Below are positions 1,532-40,982 of a stretch of 64,000 nt of DNA, one piece after another. The notes beneath the pieces are model-generated. The model was not told the origin of the DNA. It ran no database searches and saw only the letters and a program-made list of their open reading frames with translations. This stretch comes from Patescibacteria group bacterium (GTDB taxonomy: Bacteria > Patescibacteriota > Minisyncoccia > UBA6257 > 2-01-FULL-56-20): positions 16,496 to 80,495 of the forward strand of contig JANLHI010000002.1 in NCBI GenBank assembly GCA_024654525.1, in the 5' to 3' direction. Within the stretch, counting starts at the first letter, position 1. Each line of letters begins with the position of its first letter. The translations under genes and the position numbers were made by a program.

Positions 1532-1975
1532 TCAGATATCGGACCTCGGACGTCAGATTTCGGATGGTATACTGGAATAATGGATGTTACCGAATTGAGG
1601 ATATATGGAGATGCAATGAAGTTATTGCCGCAAGTATACACACTCGCAAAACAGCTTCCTAAAAGCGAGTTTGAACTCCGTTCTCAACTCTGTAATTCTG
1701 CAAAAGCTATTTCTGCTCAAATCGCAGAGGGATTCGCAAAAAAGGATTCGCAGGTTGAATTCAAGCGATTCTTGTTAATGGCACTCGGTTCTTCCGATGA
1801 GACAATCACGCATTTAAGACAAATTCAAATCTTAAAATTTGAAGGTGTTGATCTTAAATTGTGTGGGTCTTTAGTCGAAGAATATCAATCCGAGTCAAAA
1901 CAGATCAATTCATTAATTCAGAAGATAAAAAACAATTCGAAATCTGGTATCTGATGTCTGAAGTCCGATATCTGA
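1532..1975 (+). other. Intervening sequence (IVS) inserted in the 16S 5' domain, closed by a long inverted-repeat stem
   Basis: TCAGATATCGGAC at 1532 pairs with GTCCGATATCTGA at 1963. Canonical 16S sequence (GGCGAACGAGTTAGTAACAC) resumes immediately after. Confidence 0.75.
1580..1954 (+). CDS. rRNA intervening-sequence protein (four-helix-bundle family, TIGR02436 / S23-IVP-like)
   Basis: ELRSQLCNSAKAISAQIAEGFAKKD and FLLMALGSSDETITHL match the IVS-protein consensus (SQLrRAaxSIxaNIAEG ... FLxIAxGSxxE). The ORF lies entirely inside the IVS. The track ORF starts at 1517, but the internal ATG at 1580 is more likely. Confidence 0.65.
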   Translation: MDVTELRIYGDAMKLLPQVYTLAKQLPKSEFELRSQLCNSAKAISAQIAEGFAKKDSQVEFKRFLLMALGSSDETITHLRQIQILKFEGVDLKLCGSLVEEYQSESKQINSLIQKIKNNSKSGI

Positions 1976-2815
1976 CAGTGGCGAACGAGTTAGTAACACC
2001 CTAGTACGTACCCCGAAGTCGGACATAGCTCATCGAAAGGTGAGGTAATTTCCGATAGTCCCAGCTTTCGCTTTTCGTTTCACGAAAAGCTATAGCGGGC
2101 AAGTCGCAAAACTTGCCTGTCCGTAGCTCACGTGGAACGCAGAGCGAAGGCTGGGTAAAGTCGCAAGACGCTTTGGGATCGGCTTAGGTCCGATCAGCTA
2201 GTTGGTGGGGTAATGGCCTACCAAGGCGATGACCGGTAGGGGAGGTGAGAGCCTGGCCCCCAACGACGGAACTGAGACACGGTCCGTACTCCTACGGGAG
2301 GCAGCAGTCGAGAATATTCGACAATGGGCGAAAGCCTGATCGAGCGACGCCGCGTGCAGGATGAAGGGCTTCGGTCTGTAAACTGCGGTAGTATGGCAAC
2401 AACGCAAGTGAGTGCCATATGGAAAGAGGTGGGTAACTACGTGCCAGCACCAGCGGTAATACGTAGACCTCAAGCGTTATCCGGATTTATTGGGCGTAAA
2501 GAGCATGTAGGAGGCGCGGTGCGTCTTTGGTTAAATCCCACTGCCTAACGGTGGAAATGCCAGAGATACGGCCGTGCTAGAGGAGGTTAGAGGTGCATGG
2601 AACTCACGGTGTAGGGGTGAAATCCGTTGATATCGTGGGGAACACCAAAGGCGAAGGCAGTGCACTGGGACCTTCCTGACTCTGAGATGCGAAAGCGTGG
2701 GGAGCAAAAAGGATTAGATACCCTTGTAGTCCACGCCCTAAACGATGCCTGCTTGCTGTTTCGAGTATCGACCCTCGGAGTGGCGTAGCTAACGCGTTAA
2801 GCAGGCCGCCTGGGA

Positions 2816-2847
<32 letters not shown>

Positions 2848-2975
2848 AGACGGGGACTCGCACAAGCGGTGGAACATGAGGTTTAATTCGACGATAAGCG
2901 AGAAACCTTACCAGGGCTTGAAATGTTTGTTGAAAGTCTGTGGAAACACGGACCCTCCCTTAAAAAGACAGCAAG

Positions 2976-3007
<32 letters not shown>

Positions 3008-3090
3008 CTTTGAAGTGTTCCCTTAAGTGGGGTAACGAGCGCAACCCCTATCGTGTGTTATATGTGTCACACGAAACTGCCCCCGCTAAA

Positions 3091-3165
3091 GTTCAGATGT
3101 TGGAAATCAGATATCAGATGTCGGATGAAATTCCGAAATCTGATATCCGAAATCTGATATCCGAT
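3091..3165 (+). other. Roughly 75-nt expansion hairpin inserted in the loop of 16S helix 40
   Basis: CCCCGCTAAA and TTTAGCGGGG flank the insert. The insert is built of ATCAGATATCAGAT and CCGAAATCTGATATC repeats. Confidence 0.6.
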
Positions 3166-3687
3166 TTTTAGCGGGGGAGGAAGGAGGGGACGACGTCAAA
3201 TCCGCATGGCCCTCTGATGCCCTGGGCCACACTCGTGTTACAATGAAGCCGACAATGCGTTGCGAACCCGTAAGGGGGAGCTAATCGTATCAAACGGTTT
3301 CTCAGTTCGGATTGAGGGCTGCAACTCGCCCTCATGAAGCTGGAATCGCTAGTAATCGCGGATCAGAACGCCGCGGTGAATACGTTCTCGAGTCCTGTAC
3401 TCACCGCCCGTCACGCCAAGGGAGCCGGGAATGGGTAAAGCCTCGCAAGGGGTTAACTCAAATTCGGTGACATGGGCGAAGTCGTAACAAGGCACGCGTA
3501 GCGGAAGCTGTGCGTGGAACAATTAAACTATACGTCGTAATTTTTAGATTTTAGGTGATAGGTGTTGGATGAAATATTCTAAAACCTAAAACCTTCAACC
3601 TAAAACTTATTTGATTGGAACAACTAAAAAGCTTTTATACTCCAGTGTCCGATATCAAATGTCGGGAAATGTGGTATACTTTTTTAC

Positions 3688-24345: not shown

Positions 24346-24419
24346 GGGCCCATAGTTAAGTGGTATAACGGCGCATTCGCATTGCGCAGGCGGGAGTTCG
24401 ATTCTCCCTGGGTCCACCA
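24346..24419 (+). tRNA. tRNA-Ala (anticodon CGC)
   Basis: Acceptor GGGCCCA/TGGGTCC carries the G3:U70 Ala identity pair. Anticodon stem GCGCA/TGCGC with loop TTCGCAT. T-arm GGTTCGATTCC. CCA is encoded. Confidence 0.85.
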
Positions 24420-24603
24420 AATGATAATTTTCGAGAGCGTTGTGCTGATTTAATTCGTAAACTAGGCCTAATTTGGCAGTTCTAATTTGTATCACTACTG
24501 AAAAGCCACGTGTTATCCACACTTCAGGTTTGTTTATATTACTTGACCTGATGTAAGCAAAGGAGTATACTTTGTTTACATTGATAAAAAGATGTAAGCA
24601 AAC

Positions 24604-25746
24604 ATGAAATCACTAGATATCGGCCAGTTAAAAGATCAAAAAGAAGGCTTTAAAGCTTTCGTTCCCAACCCTTTTCCTCCAAAGGGCGGTTTTGAGTTTG
24701 ACCCGAAAATTCTGAAGAAAAGCGACGAGGCGACGCGCCTCTTGGGTAAACTCGACGGTATCACCAAACTCCTTCCCGATGTCGATTTTTTCTTGAGTAT
24801 GTACCTGCGCAAGGACGCCGCATCATCAAGTCAAATCGAAGGGACGATGGCCACGATGATTGACGCCATCGAAGCCGAAGTCCAAGCAAGCGCGAATATT
24901 CCGGAAGATGTTGATGACATTCTGCATTACATCAAGGCGCTGAACTACGGGATGAAGCGCGTACAGCAAGACGACTTTCCGATGGCTCTCCGTTTTGTAA
25001 GAGAGTTACATAAGCAATTGATGGACAAGGCTCGAACGACTCATTATTCCGACCCAGGAGAATTCAGAAAATCACAGAACTGGATTGGTGGTACTCGTCC
25101 TGACAATGCACGCTTCGTGCCTCCCCCTGTCGAAGAAATGCATGTTGCCTTGAATGATCTTGAGAAATTTATGCATTCGAGTGATGACATTCTCACGATC
25201 ATCAAAGCGGCGCTTATACACGCGCAATTCGAAACGATTCACCCATTTCTCGATGGTAACGGTAGAACCGGTCGTATGCTCATAACGTTCTATCTTTGGA
25301 AAGAAGGTTATCTGGAGAAACCGGCATTGTTCCTGTCCTCCTACTTCAAGAAGCATCAAAAAGTCTATTACGAAAGACTGTTCGGCTATCACTTTGGAAG
25401 TGTTTCCGATTGGGTAGATTTCTTTCTTGATGGTGTCATTGAGATCGCCGGTGAGGCAATCGACATTGTCGGAAAGATCACGACACTTCGTGAAAAAGAC
25501 ATGCTCAAAGTACAGACTCTCGGCAAACGCTCGTCAGAGAGCGCGGCTTTGGTATTGCCAAAACTTTACGAACAGCCGATCGTCAACGTTGCGACGGTTC
25601 AAAAATGGACCGGTTTTTCCCGAGTTGGCTCCCAGTCGGTGATCAATCGATTTATCGAGATGGGTATCCTTACTCCCAAGGATAAGGATAAGAAATACGG
25701 GCAATCGTATATCTATAAAAAATACATAGATATATTTGCTGAATAA
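24604..25746 (+). CDS. Fic-family protein (AMPylator-type)
   Basis: Canonical Fic motif HPFLDGNGRTGR. The protein is 380 aa with a C-terminal winged-helix-like region. Confidence 0.85.
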   Translation: MKSLDIGQLKDQKEGFKAFVPNPFPPKGGFEFDPKILKKSDEATRLLGKLDGITKLLPDVDFFLSMYLRKDAASSSQIEGTMATMIDAIEAEVQASANIPEDVDDILHYIKALNYGMKRVQQDDFPMALRFVRELHKQLMDKARTTHYSDPGEFRKSQNWIGGTRPDNARFVPPPVEEMHVALNDLEKFMHSSDDILTIIKAALIHAQFETIHPFLDGNGRTGRMLITFYLWKEGYLEKPALFLSSYFKKHQKVYYERLFGYHFGSVSDWVDFFLDGVIEIAGEAIDIVGKITTLREKDMLKVQTLGKRSSESAALVLPKLYEQPIVNVATVQKWTGFSRVGSQSVINRFIEMGILTPKDKDKKYGQSYIYKKYIDIFAE

Positions 25747-25751
25747 TTCAG

Positions 25752-26207
25752 ATGACACACGACATCATCAAAAACTTAATATTCGTGGATTGCGAGGGAC
25801 ACGGACCGGCACCGACACTGAATGATTCGGTGGGTTTTGAATTTGGCGCGGTTGCGCACCCTTCAAAGCAGACATTCCACGGAATCGGGGCAACAAAAGA
25901 GACATTTGAGGATTTCGACAAATGGATTTCATCCGTGGTAGAGAAAGGATTCAGGCCGCTGTTTGTGAGCGACAATCCGGCCTATGACTGGCAGTTCATA
26001 AACTATTATTTCCACCTGCATCTCGGCAGAAACCCGTTCGGCCATTCGGCAAGAAGGATCGGCGATTTTTACGCCGGACTCGTTGGCAACTTCACTGATG
26101 GGAGTTCATGGAAAAAGCTACGGGTTACGGTGCATGACCACAATCCCGTAAACGATGCGATGGGTAATCTCGAAGCGTTCGAGAGGATATTAAGCGGAGA
26201 AAGATAA
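25752..26207 (+). CDS. Small DEDDh-type 3'-5' exonuclease-like protein
   Basis: Exo I-like FVDCEG, Exo II-like SDNPAYDWQF and Exo III-like HDHNPVNDAMGN (H-x4-D). Only 151 aa. Confidence 0.5.
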   Translation: MTHDIIKNLIFVDCEGHGPAPTLNDSVGFEFGAVAHPSKQTFHGIGATKETFEDFDKWISSVVEKGFRPLFVSDNPAYDWQFINYYFHLHLGRNPFGHSARRIGDFYAGLVGNFTDGSSWKKLRVTVHDHNPVNDAMGNLEAFERILSGER

Positions 26208-26260
26208 AATATATGCCAAAGGAAATCGCCAAGAAAACTAAAGAAGAAGTATAATTACAT

Positions 26261-28216
26261 ATGAAAAATATCTTTGAACAATTAGTAGATTTATTAAAAA
26301 AAGATGAGCGCCTTGTTTCGCAAGACGGCGTGCTTTTGAAAAATCAAGTGCAGGAATTGGCTAGGAAAAATGATCCAGCTTTGATTAAGCTTTTACTTTC
26401 CGACAAGGCGATAAAACAGCACTTCTTTTTTGAAGTAGAAAAAACGCTGATTTTTGATAAAGAAAAGTTTATCCGCTTTGTTTCTAATAAACAATTTTTA
26501 CCGGATTCCTATACTGCGTTTAAAAATAAAATCGGCTTAACTGCTGGCGATGAATATGTGAGCGAAAACAAAGAAGTGGTTTTAACTTGGCCTTATAAGG
26601 ATTGTGTTTTGGAAGGCGGAATGACCAAAGAAGACCAAAAGAGGGATGAGATTTTTTATAATGAAACATTAGCGCCGGACGATATCAATCGCCTACTGGA
26701 CGCCAAAGTTTTTACCAATTTCAAACGGATAGACAAAAAAGGCGAACACAAACTGGACGGCTTCAAGCGCGATGAAAAAGGTACGATTAAAGACAATTTG
26801 ATTATTAAAGGCAACAACTTGCTCGCGCTTGCTTCACTTAAAAAAGAATTCGTCGGAAAAGTGAAGCTGATTTACATTGATCCGCCGTATAACACAGGTG
26901 ATGACGGATTTAATTATAACGATACATTCAACCATTCAACATGGATGACCTTCTTAAAAAATCGATTGGAAATAGCTAGAAAAATGCTGACCAAAGATGG
27001 ATCGATTTTTATCCAAATTAATGATATCGAAGAAGCATATCTAAAGGTGTTATGTGATGAGGTTTTTACTCGGGAAAACTTTCATACGAGCATATGCGTG
27101 CAAATGTCTCATTTGAGCGGAGTAAAAATGGCGCACAAAGATAAGAAATTACCTAAAATTAAAGAGTATGTCTTATTTTATACAAACTCACCAAAGATTA
27201 AATTAAACCCACAATATGTTCCAGCTAGTTGGGATGAAGCACTAGAGCGATATTCTTCATTCGTAGTTAAAGAAAATTATACTGATGATGAGTGTGAAAA
27301 ATGGAAGATTATTCCACTAAACAAAGCGATCAAAGATAGTGGCGTTGATATAAAAGACAAAAAGGCAGTAACTGATTTCAAATTAAAAAATGCAGACTTA
27401 ATATTTAGAACTGCAAGAAATAGAGGGGCAGATTATTCAGCATACAATCCTAATTGTTTTAATAAAGTCACCAACCCCGACGAATCATATTATTTTGTTT
27501 ATAAAGGAGAAGATATAAGTTTTGCAGCGGACAAGGTTATTTCTATAAACGGTAAATTGACTCCAGTTGTTGCTTTGGGGGATATTTGGACCGATATCGG
27601 AATAAATAATCTATCAAATGAAGGTGGTGTGGATTTAAGATTTGGAAAAAAACCTGAAAAGTTGATAGAACGAATAATTAAGCTAATATCTAATTCAGAC
27701 GATGATATTATCGTGGATTTTTTTAGTGGATCAGGAACTACCGGTGCTGTTGCTCATAAATTGAAAAAGCGATATATCCTCATTGAGCAATTAGCTGATC
27801 ATATTAATAAATCTATTGCAAGAATTAAGAATGTAATCAAAGGTGAACAAAGTGGGATAAGTAAAGATAATGATTGGAAAGGTGGCGGAGATTTTGTCTA
27901 TATGGAACTTGCTAAATGGAATGAGGAATGGATAGAAAAAATTGAAAAAGCCAAAACCGGCAAAGAACTCGCTAAACTTTGGGATGAGATGAAAGAAACC
28001 GTCTTTTTGAGCTACAAAGTCGATCCGACAAATGTTGATGCAAATGCCAAAGATTTTGCGGAATTATCTATTGCCGATCAAAAGAAATTTTTGATTGAGT
28101 GCTTGGATAAAAATCAGCTTTATGTAAATTTGAGCGAGATTGAGGATAGAGAGTATGGGGTGAGTAAAGAGGATATAAAGTTAAATAAAGAGTTTTATGA
28201 AAAAGATAGCTTTTAA
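26261..28216 (+). CDS. mod: Type III restriction-modification N6-adenine DNA methyltransferase (Mod)
   Basis: Motif IV (IYIDPPYNTG) precedes motif I (VDFFSGSGTTGAVA), which is beta-class order. The 651-aa length is typical for Mod. Confidence 0.85.
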   Translation: MKNIFEQLVDLLKKDERLVSQDGVLLKNQVQELARKNDPALIKLLLSDKAIKQHFFFEVEKTLIFDKEKFIRFVSNKQFLPDSYTAFKNKIGLTAGDEYVSENKEVVLTWPYKDCVLEGGMTKEDQKRDEIFYNETLAPDDINRLLDAKVFTNFKRIDKKGEHKLDGFKRDEKGTIKDNLIIKGNNLLALASLKKEFVGKVKLIYIDPPYNTGDDGFNYNDTFNHSTWMTFLKNRLEIARKMLTKDGSIFIQINDIEEAYLKVLCDEVFTRENFHTSICVQMSHLSGVKMAHKDKKLPKIKEYVLFYTNSPKIKLNPQYVPASWDEALERYSSFVVKENYTDDECEKWKIIPLNKAIKDSGVDIKDKKAVTDFKLKNADLIFRTARNRGADYSAYNPNCFNKVTNPDESYYFVYKGEDISFAADKVISINGKLTPVVALGDIWTDIGINNLSNEGGVDLRFGKKPEKLIERIIKLISNSDDDIIVDFFSGSGTTGAVAHKLKKRYILIEQLADHINKSIARIKNVIKGEQSGISKDNDWKGGGDFVYMELAKWNEEWIEKIEKAKTGKELAKLWDEMKETVFLSYKVDPTNVDANAKDFAELSIADQKKFLIECLDKNQLYVNLSEIEDREYGVSKEDIKLNKEFYEKDSF

Positions 28217-28826
28217 AACTTACGAACAAATAAAAAATCTACTCCGGATAACAGGGTACTTATTCTGGTGGATCATACCCTTTGCTTTATTTATACTGGC
28301 CACATATTTACCGAAATTTATTTGGAATATTAGTTTTAATGACTATTTAAATTTTATAAAGATTCTAGTCTGGCCCATATCAGCCTTGATTATTTTATTT
28401 TTCTTTAAAAAGGTGATAACTTACCTTTTCTTTTCCATTGATGGCTTTAATTTTTTTGGCGCCAAAGGAGAAATAAAAAATGTATATGACCTAATAACGG
28501 AAAAAGTCAACGAAAGATTTGAAAATGAAAAAAGAGAGGCCGCAAGAGAAACCGAGGTAAATAGACTACAAAGAGAAATTGAAACAAATTCAGGAAGGGC
28601 GGATGAAAATTTAAAGACTGCAAAGGAGATTTTAGCAGAATGGAAAAAATCTAACACGGATAATAAGAGACTTTTGGAGGAAAATAAGCAACTAAGGGAC
28701 GCAATTGAGAGAAAAAATCAATACTCTGGCAATTTTCCGCCTGTTTCTGGAGAGTCAGAACTTGGTACTGGTAATAAGGTTGATAATAGTCAACCCGTGG
28801 CTCCTTCCAATGAAGAAAAAATATGA
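28197..28826 (+). CDS. Hypothetical membrane protein with a C-terminal coiled coil, embedded between mod and res
   Basis: Two or three N-terminal TM helices are followed by a K/E/R-rich coiled coil. The start overlaps the mod 3' end by 20 nt. Confidence 0.5.
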   Translation: MKKIAFKTYEQIKNLLRITGYLFWWIIPFALFILATYLPKFIWNISFNDYLNFIKILVWPISALIILFFFKKVITYLFFSIDGFNFFGAKGEIKNVYDLITEKVNERFENEKREAARETEVNRLQREIETNSGRADENLKTAKEILAEWKKSNTDNKRLLEENKQLRDAIERKNQYSGNFPPVSGESELGTGNKVDNSQPVAPSNEEKI

Positions 28827-29089
28827 ATAAATATTTAATAACTTACGATTTGAAAAATAAGTCCATAAGGGATTACCAATCACTTTTTATTGCCATAAAA
28901 AGTCTTGGCCCATGGTGGCATTATTTAGAGTCAACATGGATTGTTAAAACTAATTTAAATTCCCAACAAATATGGAATACTTTAGGCCAACACTTACTCA
29001 CAAATGACCATATTTTAGTTGTAAAAATTGATAATAGTGATAAGTGGGGATGGTTACCACAAGATGCATGGAATTGGCTAAACACATAA
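28823..29089 (+). CDS. Small Trp-rich hypothetical protein (88 aa), embedded between mod and res
   Basis: ATGA start/stop overlap with the upstream ORF. The stop lies 7 nt before res. The pattern YLITYDL...DHILVVKI suggests an alpha/beta fold. No recognisable family. Confidence 0.45.
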   Translation: MNKYLITYDLKNKSIRDYQSLFIAIKSLGPWWHYLESTWIVKTNLNSQQIWNTLGQHLLTNDHILVVKIDNSDKWGWLPQDAWNWLNT

Positions 29090-29095
29090 TAAATT

Positions 29096-31780
29096 ATGCT
29101 TTACGACGAATTTAACTCATATAAAAACTTTGCCGGCGCTGATGTTTTCAAAAACAAAGCGACAGAAAAATCAGATGTTTTGAAAAATCTCAATCCGGCT
29201 TTTCCGGCGCGCGAATATCAGAAGGAAGCACTGGGGCGGTTTTATTATTATTGTGAGGAATATCACCAAAAACAAAAGCCAATTCATTTGATGTTCAATA
29301 TGGCGACTGGTTCGGGGAAAACGCTCATAATGGCGGCGAATATTTTGTATTTATACCAAAAGGGCTACCGTAATTTTATTTTTTTTACTCGTTTGGGTAA
29401 CATTATTCAAAAAACCAAAGCAAATTTTCTTGATCTAAGTTCTAAAAAATATTTGTTTGCCGACAAAATCACTCTTGGCGGACAGGAAATAAAAATCAAA
29501 GAAGTTGATAATTTTGAAGGTGTAAATGATGATGATATCAATATTATTTTCTCTACCACCGCGCTTTTACACTCTCGTTTCAATTTTGCTCGCGAAAATG
29601 TTTTAACTTACGAAGATTTTGCGGAAAAGAAAATTGTTTTGATTGCTGATGAAGCGCACAACCTATCTGTGGAAACAAATAGCAAGATAAGCAAAACCGA
29701 AGAAGAAGACCGCCGAAACTGGGAAAATACAGTAATGCGGATTTTGAACGCCAACAGCCAAAAGGATAATGTGCTTTTGGAGTTTACGGCAACGGCTCGA
29801 TTAGAACAGGAATATCCTGAGATTTTGGAAAAATACAAAGACAAAGCGATTTATCGTTATGATCTGAAAGAATATCGCTTGGACGGGTTTTCAAAAGATG
29901 TGCGAACTTTGCAGATAAACGCGCCGATTATGGAACGAGCTCTTTCGGCGGTGATTATTTCGCAATATCGCCGTAAGGTGGCAGAAAAGTATAAAATCGC
30001 ACTAAAGCCAGTGGTTATGTTTAAGGCCAACAGAGTAAGTATTCCCAAAGAAGGAATATCCAAGGAACATAATCCGCAAATTGTCGTTTCAAACATTTTC
30101 AAAGACTCTTTTCATAAACTTATTTCTGAACTAGACGAAAAACACCTAAAACAGCAAACAGCAATAAAAAACGCAACATTGCAAAAAGCATTTCAATTTT
30201 TCAATGAGCAAAAAATTACTCTTGTGGATTTAGCGGCAGAAATGAAAAGCGATTTTGCACCGGAAAAATGCTTGACGGTTGATGAAGATAAAGATTTAGA
30301 GCAAAAACAAATTTTACTTAATTCACTAGAAGATCAAAACAATGAAATCCGCGCTATTTTTGCGACAGAAAAATTGAATGAAGGTTGGGATGTTTTGAAT
30401 CTTTTTGATATTGTCCGGATTTACAACAGTCGTGACGAAAAAGGCAATAAACCGGGAAAAACAACTGTGCAAGAGGCGCAACTTATCGGGCGAGGCGCAA
30501 GGTATTATCCTTTTACTCTTGGTGAATTTACTGACCCATATAGAAGAAAATTCGATACTGATATACAAAATGAATTACGGATATTGGAACAACTTTATTA
30601 TCATAGCGTAACGAATTCTAAGTACATTTCTTTACTAGAAGGAGTTTTGGTTCGTGAAGGTATTATGCCATCACGCACAGTGCAAAAAGAGATTAAAATT
30701 AGAAGCGATTTTAAAAACAGCGATTTTTGGAAGAAAGGCTATATTTTCTTAAATTCTCGCAAGGAAAATTTAGGAAAAGATGTTTTTACTCTCTCGGACG
30801 CCAAAGCAGAATTCGACCATAACGCTGAAATAAACATCTTTCAACTACCAACGCGAGAAGCGATAGAAAAAGATTTGTTTGTTGCTGGTGCTGGCGCCGG
30901 AGTAAAGGCAAAAATTAAAATCCGAGATTTTAGAATTGCTGATTTCGGAACACATATTGTCCGCATCGCTTTGGCAAAAATATCATGCGGACAGTTTTGT
31001 GAACTTAAAAAGATTTTCGGTAACATAGAATCCGCAAAAGATTTTATTTCAAATGAAAAATATCTTGGAGGCATAAAAATTAAGGTGAAAGGTACAAACG
31101 AGCAAGTAGAAAATCTTTTGCAGATTGAAAAGTTGAATATTACCGGATTTGTGATTGATAAAGTATTGGAAGTCGCCGGCAAAGAGAAAAAGGAATACTA
31201 CGGAACAAAGGAGTTTAAAGCTCACCTGATCCAAAAAATATTTGAAAATGACAAGGTGTTGCAATTAGATAGCGAAAGTCCGCGAGCGCAAAATATGCGA
31301 GATTTTGATTTTTCTTCTCGGGATTGGTTTGCTCAAAACGAAATCTGGGGAACGAGCGAGGAGGAATCATTTTTGCGTTTTATTGATGAGGCAATAACAA
31401 AGCTAAAAAAGAAATATCAAGATGTTGCACTATTTCGTAATGAGCAGTTTTTCAGAATCTACGGCTTTGAAAACGGTGAGCCGTTTTATCCCGATTTCGT
31501 TTTGTTTTTGACGGAAAAGAAAACAAAGCAAGAAGTTATGTATCAGATTTTTGTTGAGCCAAAGGGCAATCAATTTTTGGATGCACAAAATACTTTTGAG
31601 CATTCAAAAGAGGGTTGGAAGCAAAAACTATTGGTTGAGATAGAAAAAAGTCATATTGTTGAGTTGAGGATAGAAAGTAAGGATTTTCGTTTGGTTGGTT
31701 TGCCTTTCTTTAACGAGGGACAGGTGAATAGTGCCTTGCGTGAAAAGTTTGAAGAGGTGTTTGAAAAAAAATTATTATAA
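29096..31780 (+). CDS. res: Type III restriction endonuclease (Res) subunit
   Basis: A REYQ motif, Walker A MATGSGKT and DEAH box IADEAHN are present. The C-terminal nuclease-like segment reads PDFVLFL...IFVEPKG (PD-(D/E)xK). Confidence 0.85.
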   Translation: MLYDEFNSYKNFAGADVFKNKATEKSDVLKNLNPAFPAREYQKEALGRFYYYCEEYHQKQKPIHLMFNMATGSGKTLIMAANILYLYQKGYRNFIFFTRLGNIIQKTKANFLDLSSKKYLFADKITLGGQEIKIKEVDNFEGVNDDDINIIFSTTALLHSRFNFARENVLTYEDFAEKKIVLIADEAHNLSVETNSKISKTEEEDRRNWENTVMRILNANSQKDNVLLEFTATARLEQEYPEILEKYKDKAIYRYDLKEYRLDGFSKDVRTLQINAPIMERALSAVIISQYRRKVAEKYKIALKPVVMFKANRVSIPKEGISKEHNPQIVVSNIFKDSFHKLISELDEKHLKQQTAIKNATLQKAFQFFNEQKITLVDLAAEMKSDFAPEKCLTVDEDKDLEQKQILLNSLEDQNNEIRAIFATEKLNEGWDVLNLFDIVRIYNSRDEKGNKPGKTTVQEAQLIGRGARYYPFTLGEFTDPYRRKFDTDIQNELRILEQLYYHSVTNSKYISLLEGVLVREGIMPSRTVQKEIKIRSDFKNSDFWKKGYIFLNSRKENLGKDVFTLSDAKAEFDHNAEINIFQLPTREAIEKDLFVAGAGAGVKAKIKIRDFRIADFGTHIVRIALAKISCGQFCELKKIFGNIESAKDFISNEKYLGGIKIKVKGTNEQVENLLQIEKLNITGFVIDKVLEVAGKEKKEYYGTKEFKAHLIQKIFENDKVLQLDSESPRAQNMRDFDFSSRDWFAQNEIWGTSEEESFLRFIDEAITKLKKKYQDVALFRNEQFFRIYGFENGEPFYPDFVLFLTEKKTKQEVMYQIFVEPKGNQFLDAQNTFEHSKEGWKQKLLVEIEKSHIVELRIESKDFRLVGLPFFNEGQVNSALREKFEEVFEKKLL

Positions 31781-31784
31781 ACTT

Positions 31785-32306
31785 ATGAAAATCAACACTT
31801 TGACTGGTTCAACAGGCTCACCGCAAGCAAGCTCAGTGCGAGGCAACACATTCAAACTCATCATCTCGCTTATTATTCCACAATTGGCAGGAGGTCTGGG
31901 GAGCTTCTTTACCATCAGTTCGGTGAAAGATTGGTATCCGATGCTGGAGAAGCCCTTGCTCAATCCGCCAGCATGGATATTTGGTCCGGTCTGGACGACG
32001 TTGTTTCTTTTGATGGGCTACGCGCTGTATCTTGTCTGGAAGGACGAGAGCGGAAAAAGCAAACGCCTGGCCTACTTCGCTTTTGGGATTCAAATGGTTT
32101 TAAATATGCTATGGTCAATTATCTTTTTCGGTCTGCACAGTCCGGGCGGTGCGCTTATTGAGATCGTATTCCTTTGGCTCGCCATTCTTGCCACGTTTGT
32201 TGCTTTTGCGAAAATATCAAAACCGGCGGCGTGGCTCTTGTTGCCCTATATCCTCTGGGTCAGCTTTGCTATGTATTTAAACTATTCAATCTGGATGCTT
32301 AATTAG
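31785..32306 (+). CDS. tspO: TspO/MBR-family (tryptophan-rich sensory) membrane protein
   Basis: WYPMLEKPLLNPPAWIFGPVWTTLFLLMGYALYLVW and LWSIIFFGL are hallmarks of the TspO family. The start ATG follows 2 nt after the res stop. Confidence 0.8.
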   Translation: MKINTLTGSTGSPQASSVRGNTFKLIISLIIPQLAGGLGSFFTISSVKDWYPMLEKPLLNPPAWIFGPVWTTLFLLMGYALYLVWKDESGKSKRLAYFAFGIQMVLNMLWSIIFFGLHSPGGALIEIVFLWLAILATFVAFAKISKPAAWLLLPYILWVSFAMYLNYSIWMLN

Positions 32307-32329: not shown

Positions 32330-32545
32330 ATGCAAAGAACGCCGGTTTCATCAACAAATATCCGCTCCATAGGCTACGATTCACAATTGGCGACTTTGGA
32401 AGTGGAGTTTACTTCTGGTGATATCTACCAGTATTTTAATGTGCCAGAACATCTGTTCCAGCAGTTTTTACACGCATCATCACACGGGCAATTTCTGAAT
32501 GACAATATCCTCCGTTATAACTACCGATACCAAAAGGTAAGCTAA
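32330..32545 (+). CDS. KTSC-domain protein
   Basis: SSTNIRSIGYDSQLATLEVEFTSGDIYQYFNVPEHLFQQF matches the KTSC-domain pattern. Confidence 0.65.
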   Translation: MQRTPVSSTNIRSIGYDSQLATLEVEFTSGDIYQYFNVPEHLFQQFLHASSHGQFLNDNILRYNYRYQKVS

Positions 32546-32549
32546 TTTT

Positions 32550-33326
32550 ATGTTTACGCCGAAAACACAGAGAATAAAAGATATTGCGAATGATAAACAG
32601 GAAGTCATTAAGCGACTTGAAGGTATTTTTCATACGAACACCCACGTTTATATTGATTACGCAAATGTGCGTCCATGGAGCGAAAAACTTGGGTGGCATA
32701 TTGATTTGAAACGGCTCAAGCAATTTTTGGATTCTTTCAGCACTATAGAGGCAATCAATTTTTATAACGGGTACCTTGCGGGCAACGAACGTTCGGAAAA
32801 AGAAAAATCAGAAGCAGAAAATTATAAATATATTCTTCGGACAAAACCCGTCAAGATACTTAATTTTTCTATCAATGCATCAAGCGTGCCGGCAGATTCA
32901 ACGGTTCTTGTGAAGCAGTTTATTCGTCGCGCGTTACTGAAGAAGTACGAGGTAGGGACTATCGAATACTTGAATCAGCGTTTTGTCGATATGAACAAGA
33001 AGGGCGAGTATTTCATTGAAGACATGAAATGCAATTTTGATGTGGAAATCGGCGTTGATATGCTACTTGATTGCGAACGGAACAGCGCTGAAACATTTAT
33101 ACTATGGAGCGGAGACAGCGATTTTGCCGATCCGATTAGAAAATTAATAGCCGCCGGCAAAAAAGTTTACTTGTTCGCGACGGCTGGCAGAATTTCCAGC
33201 GAATTGAATGAACTTAAGGAAAGCGGTCTCAAGATAGTGGATATTTTTGAGCTCAAAGAGTTTATTTGTTGGCTAAAGGAATCATCCTATAAAAGCACAA
33301 AGGACCCCGTTGCCGAGGCCCTTTAG
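32550..33326 (+). CDS. NYN-domain (LabA-like) putative ribonuclease
   Basis: FDVEIGVDML...ILWSGDSDFADPIRKLIAAGKKVY is the NYN / LabA-like PIN-type core. Confidence 0.7.
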   Translation: MFTPKTQRIKDIANDKQEVIKRLEGIFHTNTHVYIDYANVRPWSEKLGWHIDLKRLKQFLDSFSTIEAINFYNGYLAGNERSEKEKSEAENYKYILRTKPVKILNFSINASSVPADSTVLVKQFIRRALLKKYEVGTIEYLNQRFVDMNKKGEYFIEDMKCNFDVEIGVDMLLDCERNSAETFILWSGDSDFADPIRKLIAAGKKVYLFATAGRISSELNELKESGLKIVDIFELKEFICWLKESSYKSTKDPVAEAL

Positions 33327-33537
33327 CTCTAAAATCAGTGATCTTACGATCGATTGCATTGTAGCATAAGACAAGGAAAGTTGTCCACAGTTTATGGAAA
33401 TCAAATCAAAACAACCCCATACCAGTTCGCGACTGGGCAAGAAAATTAGGAGAGAAAATTAAACATTCCAACATTCTTGCTTCGCCCGTCCGTATCCTCG
33501 TGCGAAGATAAGGGGGTCAGGTACGGGATATACTTTA

Positions 33538-33618
33538 CGATCGGTTCGGTGAAAGATTGGTATCCGATGCTGGTCAAGCTGGTTCTCAATCCGCCGGCGT
33601 GGATATTCGGTCCGGTAC
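33538..33618 (+). pseudogene. TspO gene fragment (remnant duplicate of the 31914-31990 region)
   Basis: About 83% nucleotide identity over about 80 nt to the tspO N-terminal coding region (GGTGAAAGATTGGTATCCGATGCTGG...CAATCCGCC...GGATATT.GGTCCGGT). No intact ORF. Confidence 0.5.
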
Positions 33619-35231: not shown

Positions 35232-35513
35232 ATGAAAAATAAGGGCAAAAAAGCAATATATATATCTGTAGCTGAGCTGGCAAAAATTCTTGGCATTAGT
35301 CGTATTGCTGTATTTAATAAAATAAAGAAAGGACAAATTCAAGCTGAAAAAATTGGACGTTCTTATGCTATTTCGATGGAACATGTTAATGAAATAATTT
35401 CTGGTTCTAGCTCTGGGGTATTAACAGAAGAGAAAAAGGAAGACATAAAAAAAGCTGTAGAAAAAGTTGTAAAAGAATATGGAGAAACTTTAAAACTTCT
35501 CGGTAGAGAATAA
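35232..35513 (+). CDS. Excisionase-family HTH DNA-binding protein (putative antitoxin)
   Basis: ISVAELAKILGISRIAVFNKIKKGQIQAEKIGRSYAI is an excisionase/MerR-like HTH. It lies 3 nt upstream of the Doc gene. Confidence 0.6.
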   Translation: MKNKGKKAIYISVAELAKILGISRIAVFNKIKKGQIQAEKIGRSYAISMEHVNEIISGSSSGVLTEEKKEDIKKAVEKVVKEYGETLKLLGRE

Positions 35514-35515
35514 TT

Positions 35516-35941
35516 ATGAAATTGAAGCAACTTACAATTGTAGATATAGAGTATGCAGCACATCGCTTAGCAAAAGAAACAATGAGTTGGAATAAACCGA
35601 TTCCTGATTTTAGTACTCGATATACTAATACTCTTGAAAGATGTGTTGAGGCACCGTTTCAATCATTCGGAGGAAGACAGCTATACCCCGGACTAATAAA
35701 AAAAGGTGCCATACTTTTTTATTTTATGATTAAAAATCATCCATTTCAAAATGGAAACAAAAGATTGGCTATGACGACATTATTCATATTTCTTTTTCAA
35801 AATAAAAAATGGCTTAAGGTTGATAATCAGGAATTATATAATTTTGCTCGTTGGGTTGCAGAAAGCAACGCAAAATTAAAAGAAGACACTGTTCGCGCTG
35901 TCGAAACATTCCTAATTAATTATATAACTGATATTCATTAA
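35516..35941 (+). CDS. doc: Doc-family toxin (Fic/Doc fold)
   Basis: Doc motif HPFQNGNKRLA. 141 aa. Confidence 0.8.
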   Translation: MKLKQLTIVDIEYAAHRLAKETMSWNKPIPDFSTRYTNTLERCVEAPFQSFGGRQLYPGLIKKGAILFYFMIKNHPFQNGNKRLAMTTLFIFLFQNKKWLKVDNQELYNFARWVAESNAKLKEDTVRAVETFLINYITDIH

Positions 35942-36911: not shown

Positions 36912-37895
36912 ATGGAAGAAATAAAACCAAACTGCATAATAATCCACGGCTGTCCCTCGGACGCGGAAAAGGCGATGAATCCCGCAACGCGGACATACGA
37001 TAAGCATTGGATTCCGTGGCTCAAACTAGCCCTTGTCGCCGCCGGAATAGCGACGGAAACGCCGCGTATGCCCGATCCGTGGGAGCCGAGCTATCAAAAG
37101 TTCAAAACCGAGTTTGAGAAATACGAAGTTAACGAAAACACAATTTTAGTTGGGCATAGTTGTGGCTGTGCCTTTTTGGTTCGTTGGCTTGGCGAAACAA
37201 AGAGGGAAATTTTCAAACTTGTTCTCGTCGCGCCGTGGAAAATTCCCGACAAAGATGATGAGTTTAAAAAGGAATTCTACACTTATCCGATTGACGAGAA
37301 CATAAAATTGAGAGTAAACGAAATTGTGATGTTTACTGCCGATAATGAGGAAAACGAAGGAAAGGAAAGTTTGAAAATTTTTCACCAAGCATTAGGCGGT
37401 ACGATTATCGAATTAAAAGGACGCGGACATTATAAGCTCGGAGACATGGGAACAGAGGAATTTCCAGAATTATTGGAAAAACTTGTTTCGTTCGATAACC
37501 GCAAAGCTCTTATCGTGCCCATCAATTCAAAACATCAAATTTTTATTCAAGATAGGCGCGGATATAAAAAACCGGATTGGGGTTATTTTGGCGGTGAAAT
37601 CGAAAAAGGAGAAACGCCACTACAAGCAATAATCCGCGAGACAAAAGAGGAATTGCAAATTGATGTCCGCGCCGATGAATTGAAGTATCTTGGCACCTCA
37701 ATCACACCTTGGAACGAACGCAAAATTATCCGATATATGTTTTTGTATCGTACCGATCAAGAAAAATTTAATGTTTTGGAAGGCAAGGGTGGACATTGGC
37801 TCGCATTCGAGGAAGTGCGCGAGAGATTGGACAACAAAGACAGGTTTGATGAGATATCTGATCGGATAAGAAAAGCGGAAGAAAAATCCTTATAA
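36912..37895 (+). CDS. Fusion protein: YdeN/RBBP9-like serine hydrolase + NUDIX hydrolase
   Basis: The N-terminal part reads IIIHGCPSDAEK...HWIPWL...ILVGHSCGC (Ser_hydrolase-like). The C-terminal part carries the Nudix box GGEIEKGETPLQAIIRETKEELQI. Confidence 0.65.
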   Translation: MEEIKPNCIIIHGCPSDAEKAMNPATRTYDKHWIPWLKLALVAAGIATETPRMPDPWEPSYQKFKTEFEKYEVNENTILVGHSCGCAFLVRWLGETKREIFKLVLVAPWKIPDKDDEFKKEFYTYPIDENIKLRVNEIVMFTADNEENEGKESLKIFHQALGGTIIELKGRGHYKLGDMGTEEFPELLEKLVSFDNRKALIVPINSKHQIFIQDRRGYKKPDWGYFGGEIEKGETPLQAIIRETKEELQIDVRADELKYLGTSITPWNERKIIRYMFLYRTDQEKFNVLEGKGGHWLAFEEVRERLDNKDRFDEISDRIRKAEEKSL

Positions 37896-38072
37896 TATAT
37901 AAATATGGGAAAATATAAATTTGTTAATCTAACGGTATTCATAATCTTTTTTGGAACGGCACTTTTCGAGGCATTCCAAAAACAAAATTGGATAGAGGTG
38001 ATTATATTTTTAGCCTTGGGCGTATTATCACTTTGGGCTGATTCTAAAAGAAAAACTTGAAATCAAAAAATT

Positions 38073-40251: not shown

Positions 40252-40491
40252 TTGATTATGGAGGATAATTACGGTATGGATATGCTTGCATTGTTATGCG
40301 GTGTTGTGGGGCTTCTTGTTATCTCCCGCGCGGTGTGGTTGCGGAATGAGCGTGCGCAGGATGAATGGTTTATTGTCGGGGGCATACTACTTTTGGTGTA
40401 CAGCGTAAGCATCGGGAGCGCAATATTCACCATTCTTCAGTTGGTATTTATTCTTTCGGCGTTTTGGGAACTGAAAAAGCTACGGAAATGA
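40252..40491 (+). CDS. Small hypothetical membrane protein
   Basis: Two TM helices. It overlaps the tspO2 start by ATGA. Confidence 0.3.
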   Translation: MIMEDNYGMDMLALLCGVVGLLVISRAVWLRNERAQDEWFIVGGILLLVYSVSIGSAIFTILQLVFILSAFWELKKLRK

Positions 40492-40982
40492 GTGCGTTTT
40501 TCAAACTTGTTTTTACGATAGGAATATCCGAACTTGCGGGAGTTTCCGGTTCTATTTTTACCGTGCCGGCGATTTCTTCCGGGTGGTACGCGACGTTGGA
40601 GAAACCCGCACTCACACCGCCTTCGTGGGTGTTTGCTCCCGTGTGGACGATACTTTTTGCGCTCATGGGAATATCACTTTTCCTTGTGTGGCGTGCACAT
40701 TCCAATATTTTGCAAAATATTGGAATGTTGCCGATGTGGCATTTGGCATTCTTTGTATTTGCGTTCCAGCTTTCGCTTAATGTGTTATGGTCAATGATGT
40801 TTTTTGGATTACAGAGCACTGCGGGAGCGTTGGTGATAATTATTTCTCTTTGGTGCGCTATTCTTGCGACTATTTTGGTATTTGGAAAAATTTCCCGTGT
40901 GGCGGCATGGCTTTTAGTGCCGTATATCGTATGGGTGAGCTTTGCGGCATATCTTAATTATTCAATCTGGATTCTTTCTTGA
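40488..40982 (+). CDS. tspO: TspO/MBR-family membrane protein (second paralog)
   Basis: GWYATLEKPALTPPSWVFAPVWTILFALMGISLFLVW. The start was adjusted to the MSAFFKL ATG. Confidence 0.8.
   Translation: MSAFFKLVFTIGISELAGVSGSIFTVPAISSGWYATLEKPALTPPSWVFAPVWTILFALMGISLFLVWRAHSNILQNIGMLPMWHLAFFVFAFQLSLNVLWSMMFFGLQSTAGALVIIISLWCAILATILVFGKISRVAAWLLVPYIVWVSFAAYLNYSIWILS

Follow-up and report, generated by a model that had tools for sequence, protein, structure and literature searches.

A probable mosaic defence island in a Patescibacteria genome, with a portable mini-exonuclease and two genes embedded in a Type III restriction-modification operon

Introduction

Was a row of immune genes in a genome of the Candidate Phyla Radiation (CPR) acquired as one island beside a tRNA gene, or was it built from parts that move independently, and what does a very small exonuclease contribute to it? 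These questions are raised by a locus at 24.5-31.8 kb of a 64,000-nt stretch of DNA from a Patescibacteria group bacterium (GTDB Minisyncoccia; UBA6257; assembly GCA_024654525.1, contig JANLHI010000002.1, positions 16,496-80,495 of the forward strand). We refer to this stretch as the window, and coordinates are those of the window unless stated otherwise. A preliminary description made from the sequence had proposed that the locus is a composite defence island next to tRNA-Ala, consisting of a Fic protein, a 151-aa exonuclease and a Type III restriction-modification (R-M) system. We compared the window with loci from other genomes and contigs, which are labelled L001-L096. The defence island is real and its kinds of component are known; what is unusual is a portable mini-exonuclease and a pair of genes embedded in the R-M operon. 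We consider it probable that the island is a mosaic of independently moving cassettes that act as separate layers of defence. Because the defence systems of CPR bacteria, or Patescibacteria, are poorly charted, the locus is of interest as an example of how islands are built from small cassettes that swap at precise junctions.

Composition and limits of the cassettes

All of the genes named in the preliminary description were found where it had placed them, all on the plus strand, with the open reading frame (ORF) listing, the tRNA search, base composition and profile searches in agreement. A tRNA-Ala gene (anticodon CGC; 24346-24419; ARAGORN, and Rfam RF00005 at 67.6 bits) is the left-hand neighbour and ends 184 nt before the start of a gene for a SoFic-type class II Fic protein of 380 aa (24604-25746). 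This is followed by the gene for the 151-aa exonuclease, here called exo (25752-26207), and by a Type III R-M operon that starts with mod at 26261 and ends with res at 31780. A TspO/MBR gene (31785-32306; Pfam TspO_MBR, 2.4e-52) forms the right flank of the R-M insertion. The hidden Markov model E-values of the proteins of the locus range from 1e-20 to 1e-191, which excludes chance as the source of the gene identities. PADLOC models match Fic, exo, Mod and Res, and the blocks that carry them recur separately elsewhere with sharp homology limits, in keeping with the proposal of a composite island.

The limits of the cassettes were drawn by blastn of all compared loci against the window. Two loci, L007 (Jorgensenbacteria) and L031, have only 24512-26215/26229 in common with the window, at 80-82% nucleotide identity, which corresponds to Fic and exo. 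Loci in which the partner of exo is an AAA_14-DUF4143 ATPase (PDC-S01) have only 25741/25752 to about 26257 in common (80-89% identity), which corresponds to exo alone. The R-M block (26260-31766) is 82% identical to loci from groundwater metagenomes (L092-L096), except at 27032-27644, and its flanks differ, with RhuM in those loci and TspO in the window. The sharp fall in GC content that had been noticed at the start of mod was confirmed: the value is 0.455-0.487 in Fic and exo (0.487 in exo itself), drops to 0.343 in mod, stays at 0.31-0.36 across mod-res and returns to 0.47 in TspO. GC at third codon positions (GC3) is 0.51-0.56 in Fic and exo versus 0.28-0.34 in mod-res.

The junction between the two blocks carries a scar. 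When the DNA after exo was aligned with that of L001, L006, L010, L011, L013 and L016, we found that the window retains, after the exo stop, ATG CCA AAG GAA ATC GCC, the start of a gene that is intact in L001, L006 and L011 and whose 63-aa product (in L006 and L017) belongs to DUF7695. In the window this gene ends after 13 codons (MPKEIAKKTKEEV, then a stop; 26213-26254, plus strand), exactly where the low-GC DNA starts. Two of the compared loci, L013 and L016, break at the same point of DUF7695 and carry other cargo there, and TspO stands shortly after exo in L008, L038 and L055. The simplest history suggested by these alignments would be an insertion of the Type III cassette into the small DUF7695 gene directly behind exo, so that it now lies between exo/DUF7695 and TspO. 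Taken together, the separate homologues elsewhere, the contrast in GC3 and the DUF7695 insertion scar indicate that the cassettes move independently.

Alternatively, the whole block could be a classical genomic island that entered the tRNA-Ala 3' end in a single integrase-mediated event, as its start 93-185 nt after the tRNA gene and the deviating GC content of part of it might suggest. We consider this very improbable. Only mod-res has the low GC content, each of the two cassettes has homologues of its own in other loci, and tRNAs are not consistently adjacent to exo cassettes in the 85 loci of our neighbour survey (see below). The preliminary description had advised looking for a downstream direct repeat of the tRNA 3' end; no second copy (20-28 nt, up to 3 mismatches) was found in the window, and neither the ORFs nor the profile searches revealed an integrase ORF in 24-36 kb. 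As neither was found, the link to the tRNA, and integration targeted to it, are unsupported.

The Fic protein and its upstream region

The Fic protein carries the catalytic motif that had been reported for it: HPFLDGNGRTGR at residues 213-224 conforms to the canonical HxFx(D/E)GNGRxxR, and Pfam recognises both Fic_N (3.8e-21) and Fic (6e-21). The same chain has SSQIEG at residues 75-80, which matches the class II inhibitory-helix motif (S/T)xxxE(G/N). The PADLOC SoFic model matches at 2.9e-109 over nearly its full length (residues 15-378 to profile positions 5-358 of 361), and SoFic models also align the C-terminal region. SoFic chains in the PDB match at 1e-23 to 1e-25, and the score against the NCBIfam SoFic equivalog model is 131.6 bits, with a cut-off of 550. 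A protein search showed that the clade to which the window Fic belongs is abundant in CPR bacteria, at 80-93% identity.

The homology to L007 and L031 begins at 24512, upstream of Fic, and about 95 nt of upstream DNA is kept in five loci, with or without exo. This conserved region (24512-24603, plus strand) contains promoter-like elements, a -35 TTGACC (24543-24548) and a -10 TATACT (24566-24571) separated by a 17-nt spacer. It also contains two copies each of TTTGTTTA(C/T)AT and of its complement ATGTAAGCAAA, which form two palindromes with the units TTTGTTTACAT/ATGTAAGCAAA. Scans for promoters and terminators did not rise above shuffled expectation, and we rely only on the Fic promoter because it is conserved across loci. 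SoFic reportedly AMPylates EF-Tu and binds its own promoter, in the initial 100 bp upstream of the gene (bioRxiv 10.64898/2026.07.09.737422), and has been described as a single-gene defence and toxin (PMC12249575). By analogy, the palindromes are a putative operator, and Fic would be transcribed from its own promoter and probably repress itself. As with SoFic and EF-Tu in Shewanella, the window Fic may AMPylate a host protein and so halt translation in infected cells.

The mini-exonuclease and its neighbours

The 151-aa ORF had been called DEDDh-like, and its residues and fold bear this out. D13, E15, D79, H130 and D135 make up the DEDDh set (Exo I DxE, Exo II D, Exo III Hx4D), and all five are invariant in an alignment of 24 homologues. 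The PADLOC model PDLC00753, classed as "Effector/Exonuclease" in the cyclic oligonucleotide-based antiphage signalling system (CBASS), matches at 6.3e-20, and a sequence search of the PDB gave 7t2s as the sole significant match (E=2e-15). When an AlphaFold2 (AF2) model (mean predicted local distance difference test score, pLDDT, 94) was compared with known structures by Foldseek, rank 1 was the same structure, 7T2S, the 3'-5' exonuclease Cap18 of E. coli upec-117 (template modelling score 0.75; 29% identity). RNase T came next, the PolC exonuclease and TREX2 were further fold matches, and Rv2179c is also a structural neighbour. Among 5.8 billion proteins searched, 3027 clusters matched at E<=1e-3; nearly all of the 120 matches listed are 143-170 aa long, and many are 65-95% identical. 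We also considered that exo might be a fragment of a larger gene, and rejected this, as its family is 143-170 aa long and all of its catalytic residues are present. As had been remarked, it is not a standard R-M component.

We scanned one genome per species from 185,579 species with exact peptide patterns, which gives a lower bound, and found 216 exo loci, mostly in Patescibacteria of many candidate classes and with 85-92% protein identity. The few loci outside Patescibacteria are from Atribacteria, Acidobacteria and proteobacterial metagenome-assembled genomes. Copies this similar in many candidate classes, and near-identical ones in different candidate phyla, indicate horizontal spread of exo. 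More distant relatives (about 30% identity) are found on Enterobacter and Klebsiella plasmids, where they are annotated as 3'-5' exonucleases and end CBASS operons of the type CapW, CD-NTase (cGAS/DncV-like nucleotidyltransferase), HORMA/TRIP13. Relatives with 37% identity were also observed in uncultured phages with genomes of 462-735 kb (hits H16-H18), for example at 515683-516162 of LR756501.1.

The neighbours of exo were surveyed in 80 genome loci that were kept, plus five from contig look-ups. An upstream partner was defined as a co-oriented ORF that ends at the exo start; the ORFs were clustered and representatives scanned with profiles. The 80 genome loci held 46 sizeable co-oriented upstream genes, and 34 of these match defence models: 20 PDC-S01, 5 Fic, 5 AbiEii, 2 RhuM (PDC-S05) and 2 CD-NTases. 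The PDC-S01 partners are AAA_14+DUF4143 ATPases (PADLOC PDC-S01, 9e-100); PDC-S01 is a very common, unvalidated defence candidate that joins an ATPase to a PD-(D/E)xK nuclease (PMC12988326). The Fic partners are of four subtypes, and one more Fic gene is divergently oriented (L063). The CD-NTases match the CBASS cyclase model at 4e-78, and one of these loci, L066, is a complete minimal CBASS consisting of an effector with one transmembrane segment (1TM), a cyclase and exo. Another locus, L045, has a complete AbiEi/AbiEii pair followed by exo. Directly downstream of exo, close relatives have the small DUF7695 gene, HsdM (L016), an EcoRI-type methylase (L012), PLD-Snf2 helicases (L007, L023) or RhuM (L019). 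In L042 (4-1947), the gene upstream of exo encodes an SNF2-type helicase with an intein splicing domain. A reading in which all partners of exo are nucleotidyltransferases was also tried. It fails for the commonest partner, PDC-S01, with its ATPase and PD-(D/E)xK nuclease, and is kept as one of low probability. No cyclase or CBASS effector was found in the window at 20-36 kb among the ORFs or with Pfam and PADLOC.

The Type III operon and the two genes within it

Mod (26261-28216, plus strand; 651 aa) is a beta-class methyltransferase of the N6-adenine (m6A) type, as had been proposed. Its DPPY at 207 precedes FSGSG at 488, which is the beta-class order (motif IV, target-recognition domain in between, motif I), and it matches Pfam TypeIII_RM_meth (PF12564, 1e-24), N6_N4_Mtase (PF01555, 6e-38) and PADLOC MTase_III (1.8e-191). 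Res (29096-31780, plus strand; 894 aa, with a homologue of 898 aa in L092) likewise answers to its description as a DEAH helicase with a PD-(D/E)xK nuclease: it has GSGKT at 72, DEAH at 185 and a C-terminal nuclease motif, PD(799)...EPK(821), and matches Pfam ResIII (PF04851, 3e-24) and PADLOC REase_III (1.1e-107, residues 39-891). Mod would methylate its site, and Res-Mod would cut unmethylated DNA using ATP. In the central part of mod (27032-27644), nucleotide similarity to the cassettes of L092-L096 is absent, although these are 82% identical elsewhere; their Mod is 592 aa long versus 651 aa in the window. This is the pattern expected of a target-recognition domain swap, which would change specificity. 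No simple-sequence repeats able to drive phase variation were found in mod.

The preliminary description had mod followed by res and overlooked two tightly packed ORFs in between. The first encodes a 209-aa protein (28197-28826, plus strand) and overlaps the 3' end of mod by 20 nt; the ATG of the second, which encodes an 88-aa protein (28823-29089, plus strand), overlaps the stop of the first. All four genes of the operon overlap or abut, and the order is alike in L092-L096 (mod, 207 aa, 89 aa, res). Hydropathy analysis of the 209-aa protein gives two hydrophobic windows (about 18-40 and 50-80), consistent with two transmembrane segments (2-TM), followed by a coiled coil, and profile searches found no match to any curated family. 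Its homologues in L086 (32% identity) and in L092-L096 likewise come with the 88-aa gene, and in L086 the pair stands outside any R-M system.

The 88-aa protein matches phrog_1090 (5e-23), and its 234 homologues, which are 85-95 aa long, share invariant ITYDL, WWHYL and GWL..AW motifs. Its AF2 model (pLDDT 92) has a beta-alpha-beta-beta-alpha-beta topology plus a helix, and the top Foldseek matches are Cas2 proteins (template modelling scores 0.56-0.66). Within ITYDL, D9 is conserved in at least 90% of homologues, and a conserved Asp at the end of beta1 fits Cas2; Pfam Cas2 (PF09827) is found on 2 of the 120 homologues listed. There is no cas gene near the 88-aa gene in the window or in L086-L096. 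The gene also occurs alone, after a PIN_12 gene (L088) or after small unknown genes (L090), and in prophage-like contigs it mostly stands by itself. The pair, which would travel as a module inside the Type III R-M operon, may be toxin/antitoxin-like or a back-up abortive module.

Neighbouring features

To the right of res and the first TspO gene, 32330-33326 holds a KTSC-domain gene and a gene for a 258-aa NYN-domain protein. The latter matches PADLOC NYN (2.8e-12) and HEC-09 (3.9e-7), and L088 has a similar NYN gene close to its Cas2-fold gene, so that defence-type content may extend past res. The 620-nt gap after the NYN gene contains a 92-nt relic of TspO (33525-33616) that is 85% identical to 31899-31990 and covers residues 39-69 only. 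The window has two full TspO genes (31785-32306 and about 40480-40982), and the relic could be the trace of an older recombination border on the right-hand side of the island. The stretch 37892-38054, intergenic in the ORF listing, matches at 82% identity the DNA that directly follows exo in L008 (6466-6628); an ORF in it, about 51 codons long and starting at about 37905, encodes a small hydrophobic protein.

At 35232-35941, an excisionase-type helix-turn-helix gene (93 aa) is followed by a Doc-family toxin gene (141 aa; TIGR01550, 3e-12). With a GC content of 0.31 and a GC3 of 0.16-0.22, the two form a separate, probably foreign, toxin-antitoxin cassette, beyond the end of the locus as first described. 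An Rfam scan of the window found only the 16S rRNA and three tRNAs. The 16S gene (1836-3529) is 1694 nt long, compared with 1533 positions in the model, or about 160 nt extra, and is 75-80% identical to one Paceibacterota 16S that was picked up by chance (L071).

Discussion

From the gene identities, motifs, cassette limits and neighbour patterns observed here, we infer the biochemical activities of the proteins and any cooperation between the modules. Exo, 5 nt behind Fic and co-oriented with it, is probably co-transcribed with Fic. It is best seen as a portable add-on gene, which in other genomes stands behind self-sufficient genes of the abortive-infection type, namely PDC-S01, Fic, AbiEi/AbiEii, RhuM and CBASS. 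CBASS Exo is reported not to degrade DNA or RNA but to cleave 2'-5'-linked linear intermediates and thereby to set the activation threshold (bioRxiv 10.1101/2025.03.04.641389). By the same token, exo would most likely act by trimming 3' ends, or short species of nucleotide or oligonucleotide, and so prevent its partners from firing without infection. We tentatively extend this to a two-part proposal, which we regard as possible but well short of probable. In it, Cap18-like exonucleases of 143-154 aa are a portable immune checkpoint that restrains or resets unrelated abortive-infection systems by hydrolysing a nucleotide-linked product or trigger, and the 2-TM/Cas2-fold pair is a back-up of the PrrC kind, set off when restriction is blocked. 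The partners could be PDC-S01, SoFic-type and smaller Fic proteins, AbiE, RhuM and CBASS, and the substrates could be oligonucleotides (2'-5' or linear), nucleotides that had been added to the 3' ends of tRNAs, or even AMP joined to proteins.

Several observations weigh against our main reading of the locus or blur the outline of the island. The exo family is also present in 123 IMG/VR viral contigs (40-75% identity, about 165-180 aa), in ordinary phage gene arrays without the partners listed above, so that exo may have a general nucleic-acid role. Because CPR genomes are very compact, the short spacers (1-6 nt) that separate exo from the genes before it are poor evidence that the two are functionally coupled. 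As defence genes cluster in any case, mere residence in islands could account for the neighbour pattern, and PDC-S01 and RhuM are themselves only candidate defence genes. The Cas2 fold of the 88-aa protein rests on weak Foldseek E-values (5e-3 and above). As to the outline of the island, a close host relative was sought in a metagenome scan, and the best UppS found was 49% identical, with no shared synteny and no tRNA; the exact host UppS protein is not on record. With no closer relative than this, an empty site and outer borders based on synteny are not obtainable.

Other explanations of exo start from the same evidence. If Fic and exo formed an obligate two-gene toxin-antitoxin or defence system, in which exo neutralises Fic, for instance as a de-AMPylase acting on the AMP-protein phosphodiester, then the narrow gap between the co-oriented genes would be expected, as would their joint inheritance as a single block in L007 and L031. 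Exo homologues also adjoin Fic in four other subtypes or arrangements (L004, L043/L050, L057, L063), and the leaving group would presumably be a 5'-NMP, as in DEDDh chemistry. There is even a precedent in AS1, a small anti-SoFic gene of 47 aa downstream of SoFic in E. coli H397, which acts as an obligate antitoxin (PMC12249575). However, AS1 is unrelated to exo, SoFic has an inhibitory helix and a de-AMPylase activity of its own, and exo copies that are 85-92% identical mostly stand behind the unrelated ATPase-nuclease. Two of the closest Fic clusters lack exo, with P0244 (93% identity) followed by convergent rpsT in eight contigs and P0285 (89%) followed by methyltransferases. Because Fic proteins as close as this occur without exo, the pairing implied in the preliminary description is not obligatory, and exo is better seen as an optional add-on than as an obligate Fic antitoxin. 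The latter role was rejected on co-occurrence, as exo has at least five other partner families, which makes an obligate pair improbable. We also think it unlikely that exo is a stand-alone housekeeping or general nucleic-acid enzyme, such as a substitute for RNase T or oligoribonuclease, that sits at a recombination hotspot and has no immune role. The very high conservation across CPR classes (65-95%), the structural neighbours RNase T and Rv2179c, the recurrent adjacency of TspO (L008, L038, L055) and the relatives in ordinary phage gene arrays would all suit such an enzyme. It is harder to reconcile with the patchy distribution seen in the species scan, with the horizontal transfer implied by near-identical copies in different candidate phyla, with the share of upstream partners that match defence models, and with a closest characterised relative, Cap18, that is a CBASS accessory. 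Finally, exo could itself be a defence effector that degrades phage DNA or RNA from 3' ends, with Fic, PDC-S01 and the other upstream genes as independent neighbours. Its intact DEDDh site, the PADLOC class "Effector" of a related model and its location in defence islands agree with this, but the characterised CBASS Exo was inactive on DNA and RNA and acted on 2'-5' dinucleotides (bioRxiv 10.1101/2025.03.04.641389), phages themselves encode relatives, and a 151-aa enzyme has no obvious means of discriminating self from non-self. We therefore give an effector role little credence.

Should the checkpoint proposal hold, it would extend the principle of CBASS Exo well beyond CBASS. If exo regulates its at least five partner families, the setting of thresholds by nucleases would count as a principle of bacterial immunity at large, comparable with TREX1 and cGAS, and not as something peculiar to CBASS, and exo would provide a handle on the very common PDC-S01. 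In turn, the membrane/Cas2-fold pair, stably carried between mod and res, may be a new example of a module that acts as a second line and is guarded by an R-M enzyme. If neither of these details holds, the locus is a well-resolved ordinary defence island.

Each of the components can be set beside a known system. Exo most resembles Cap18/CBASS Exo, which is its best match in both sequence and fold and shares all of the DEDDh residues. Both are small accessory genes at the 3' end of an immune operon, and distant members of the exo family sit in true CBASS operons (L066, L069). Exo differs in being shorter by about 25-35 residues between Exo I and Exo II (151 versus 177-187 aa; about 26 residues relative to VcExo), and in that no CD-NTase lies by exo of the window or by most of its close relatives, whose partners are PDC-S01, Fic, AbiE and RhuM. 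The window Fic resembles SoFic in its Fic_N and Fic architecture, its catalytic and inhibitory motifs and its near full-length PADLOC match, and the palindromic region upstream of it fits the binding of SoFic to its own promoter. The relation is nevertheless distant (131.6 bits versus 550; PDB about 1e-24), the window Fic belongs to a CPR-specific clade (80-93% identity), and the next gene is a DEDDh exonuclease, whereas that of SoFic in E. coli H397 is the 47-aa AS1.

The R-M operon shares with the Type III systems EcoP15I and EcoP1I a Mod with a Type III N-terminal region and beta-class order, a Res that joins a superfamily 2 (SF2) helicase to a PD-(D/E)xK nuclease, co-oriented genes in one operon and a Mod target-recognition region that is swapped between relatives. 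It differs in the two extra genes between mod and res, which are retained in a second lineage (L092-L096). The pairing of a membrane protein with a Cas2-fold protein recalls the type V toxin-antitoxin system GhoS/GhoT, in which a Cas2-fold RNase is paired with a small membrane toxin, and GhoS is among the fold matches of the 88-aa protein (rank 25, template modelling score 0.49). However, the two genes stand in the reverse order, the 209-aa membrane protein far exceeds GhoT in size and contains a coiled coil, the sequences are not similar, and Cas2-fold genes of the kind found in the window also follow a PIN_12 gene or stand alone in prophages. The anticodon nuclease PrrC is embedded in the EcoprrI Type I R-M locus. 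Like PrrC, the pair in the window sits as a module within an R-M operon to whose genes it is unrelated, and this hints at a second line of action that may be coupled to the R-M enzyme; it differs in the type of R-M system and in the proteins themselves, and the pair is also carried outside R-M (L086).

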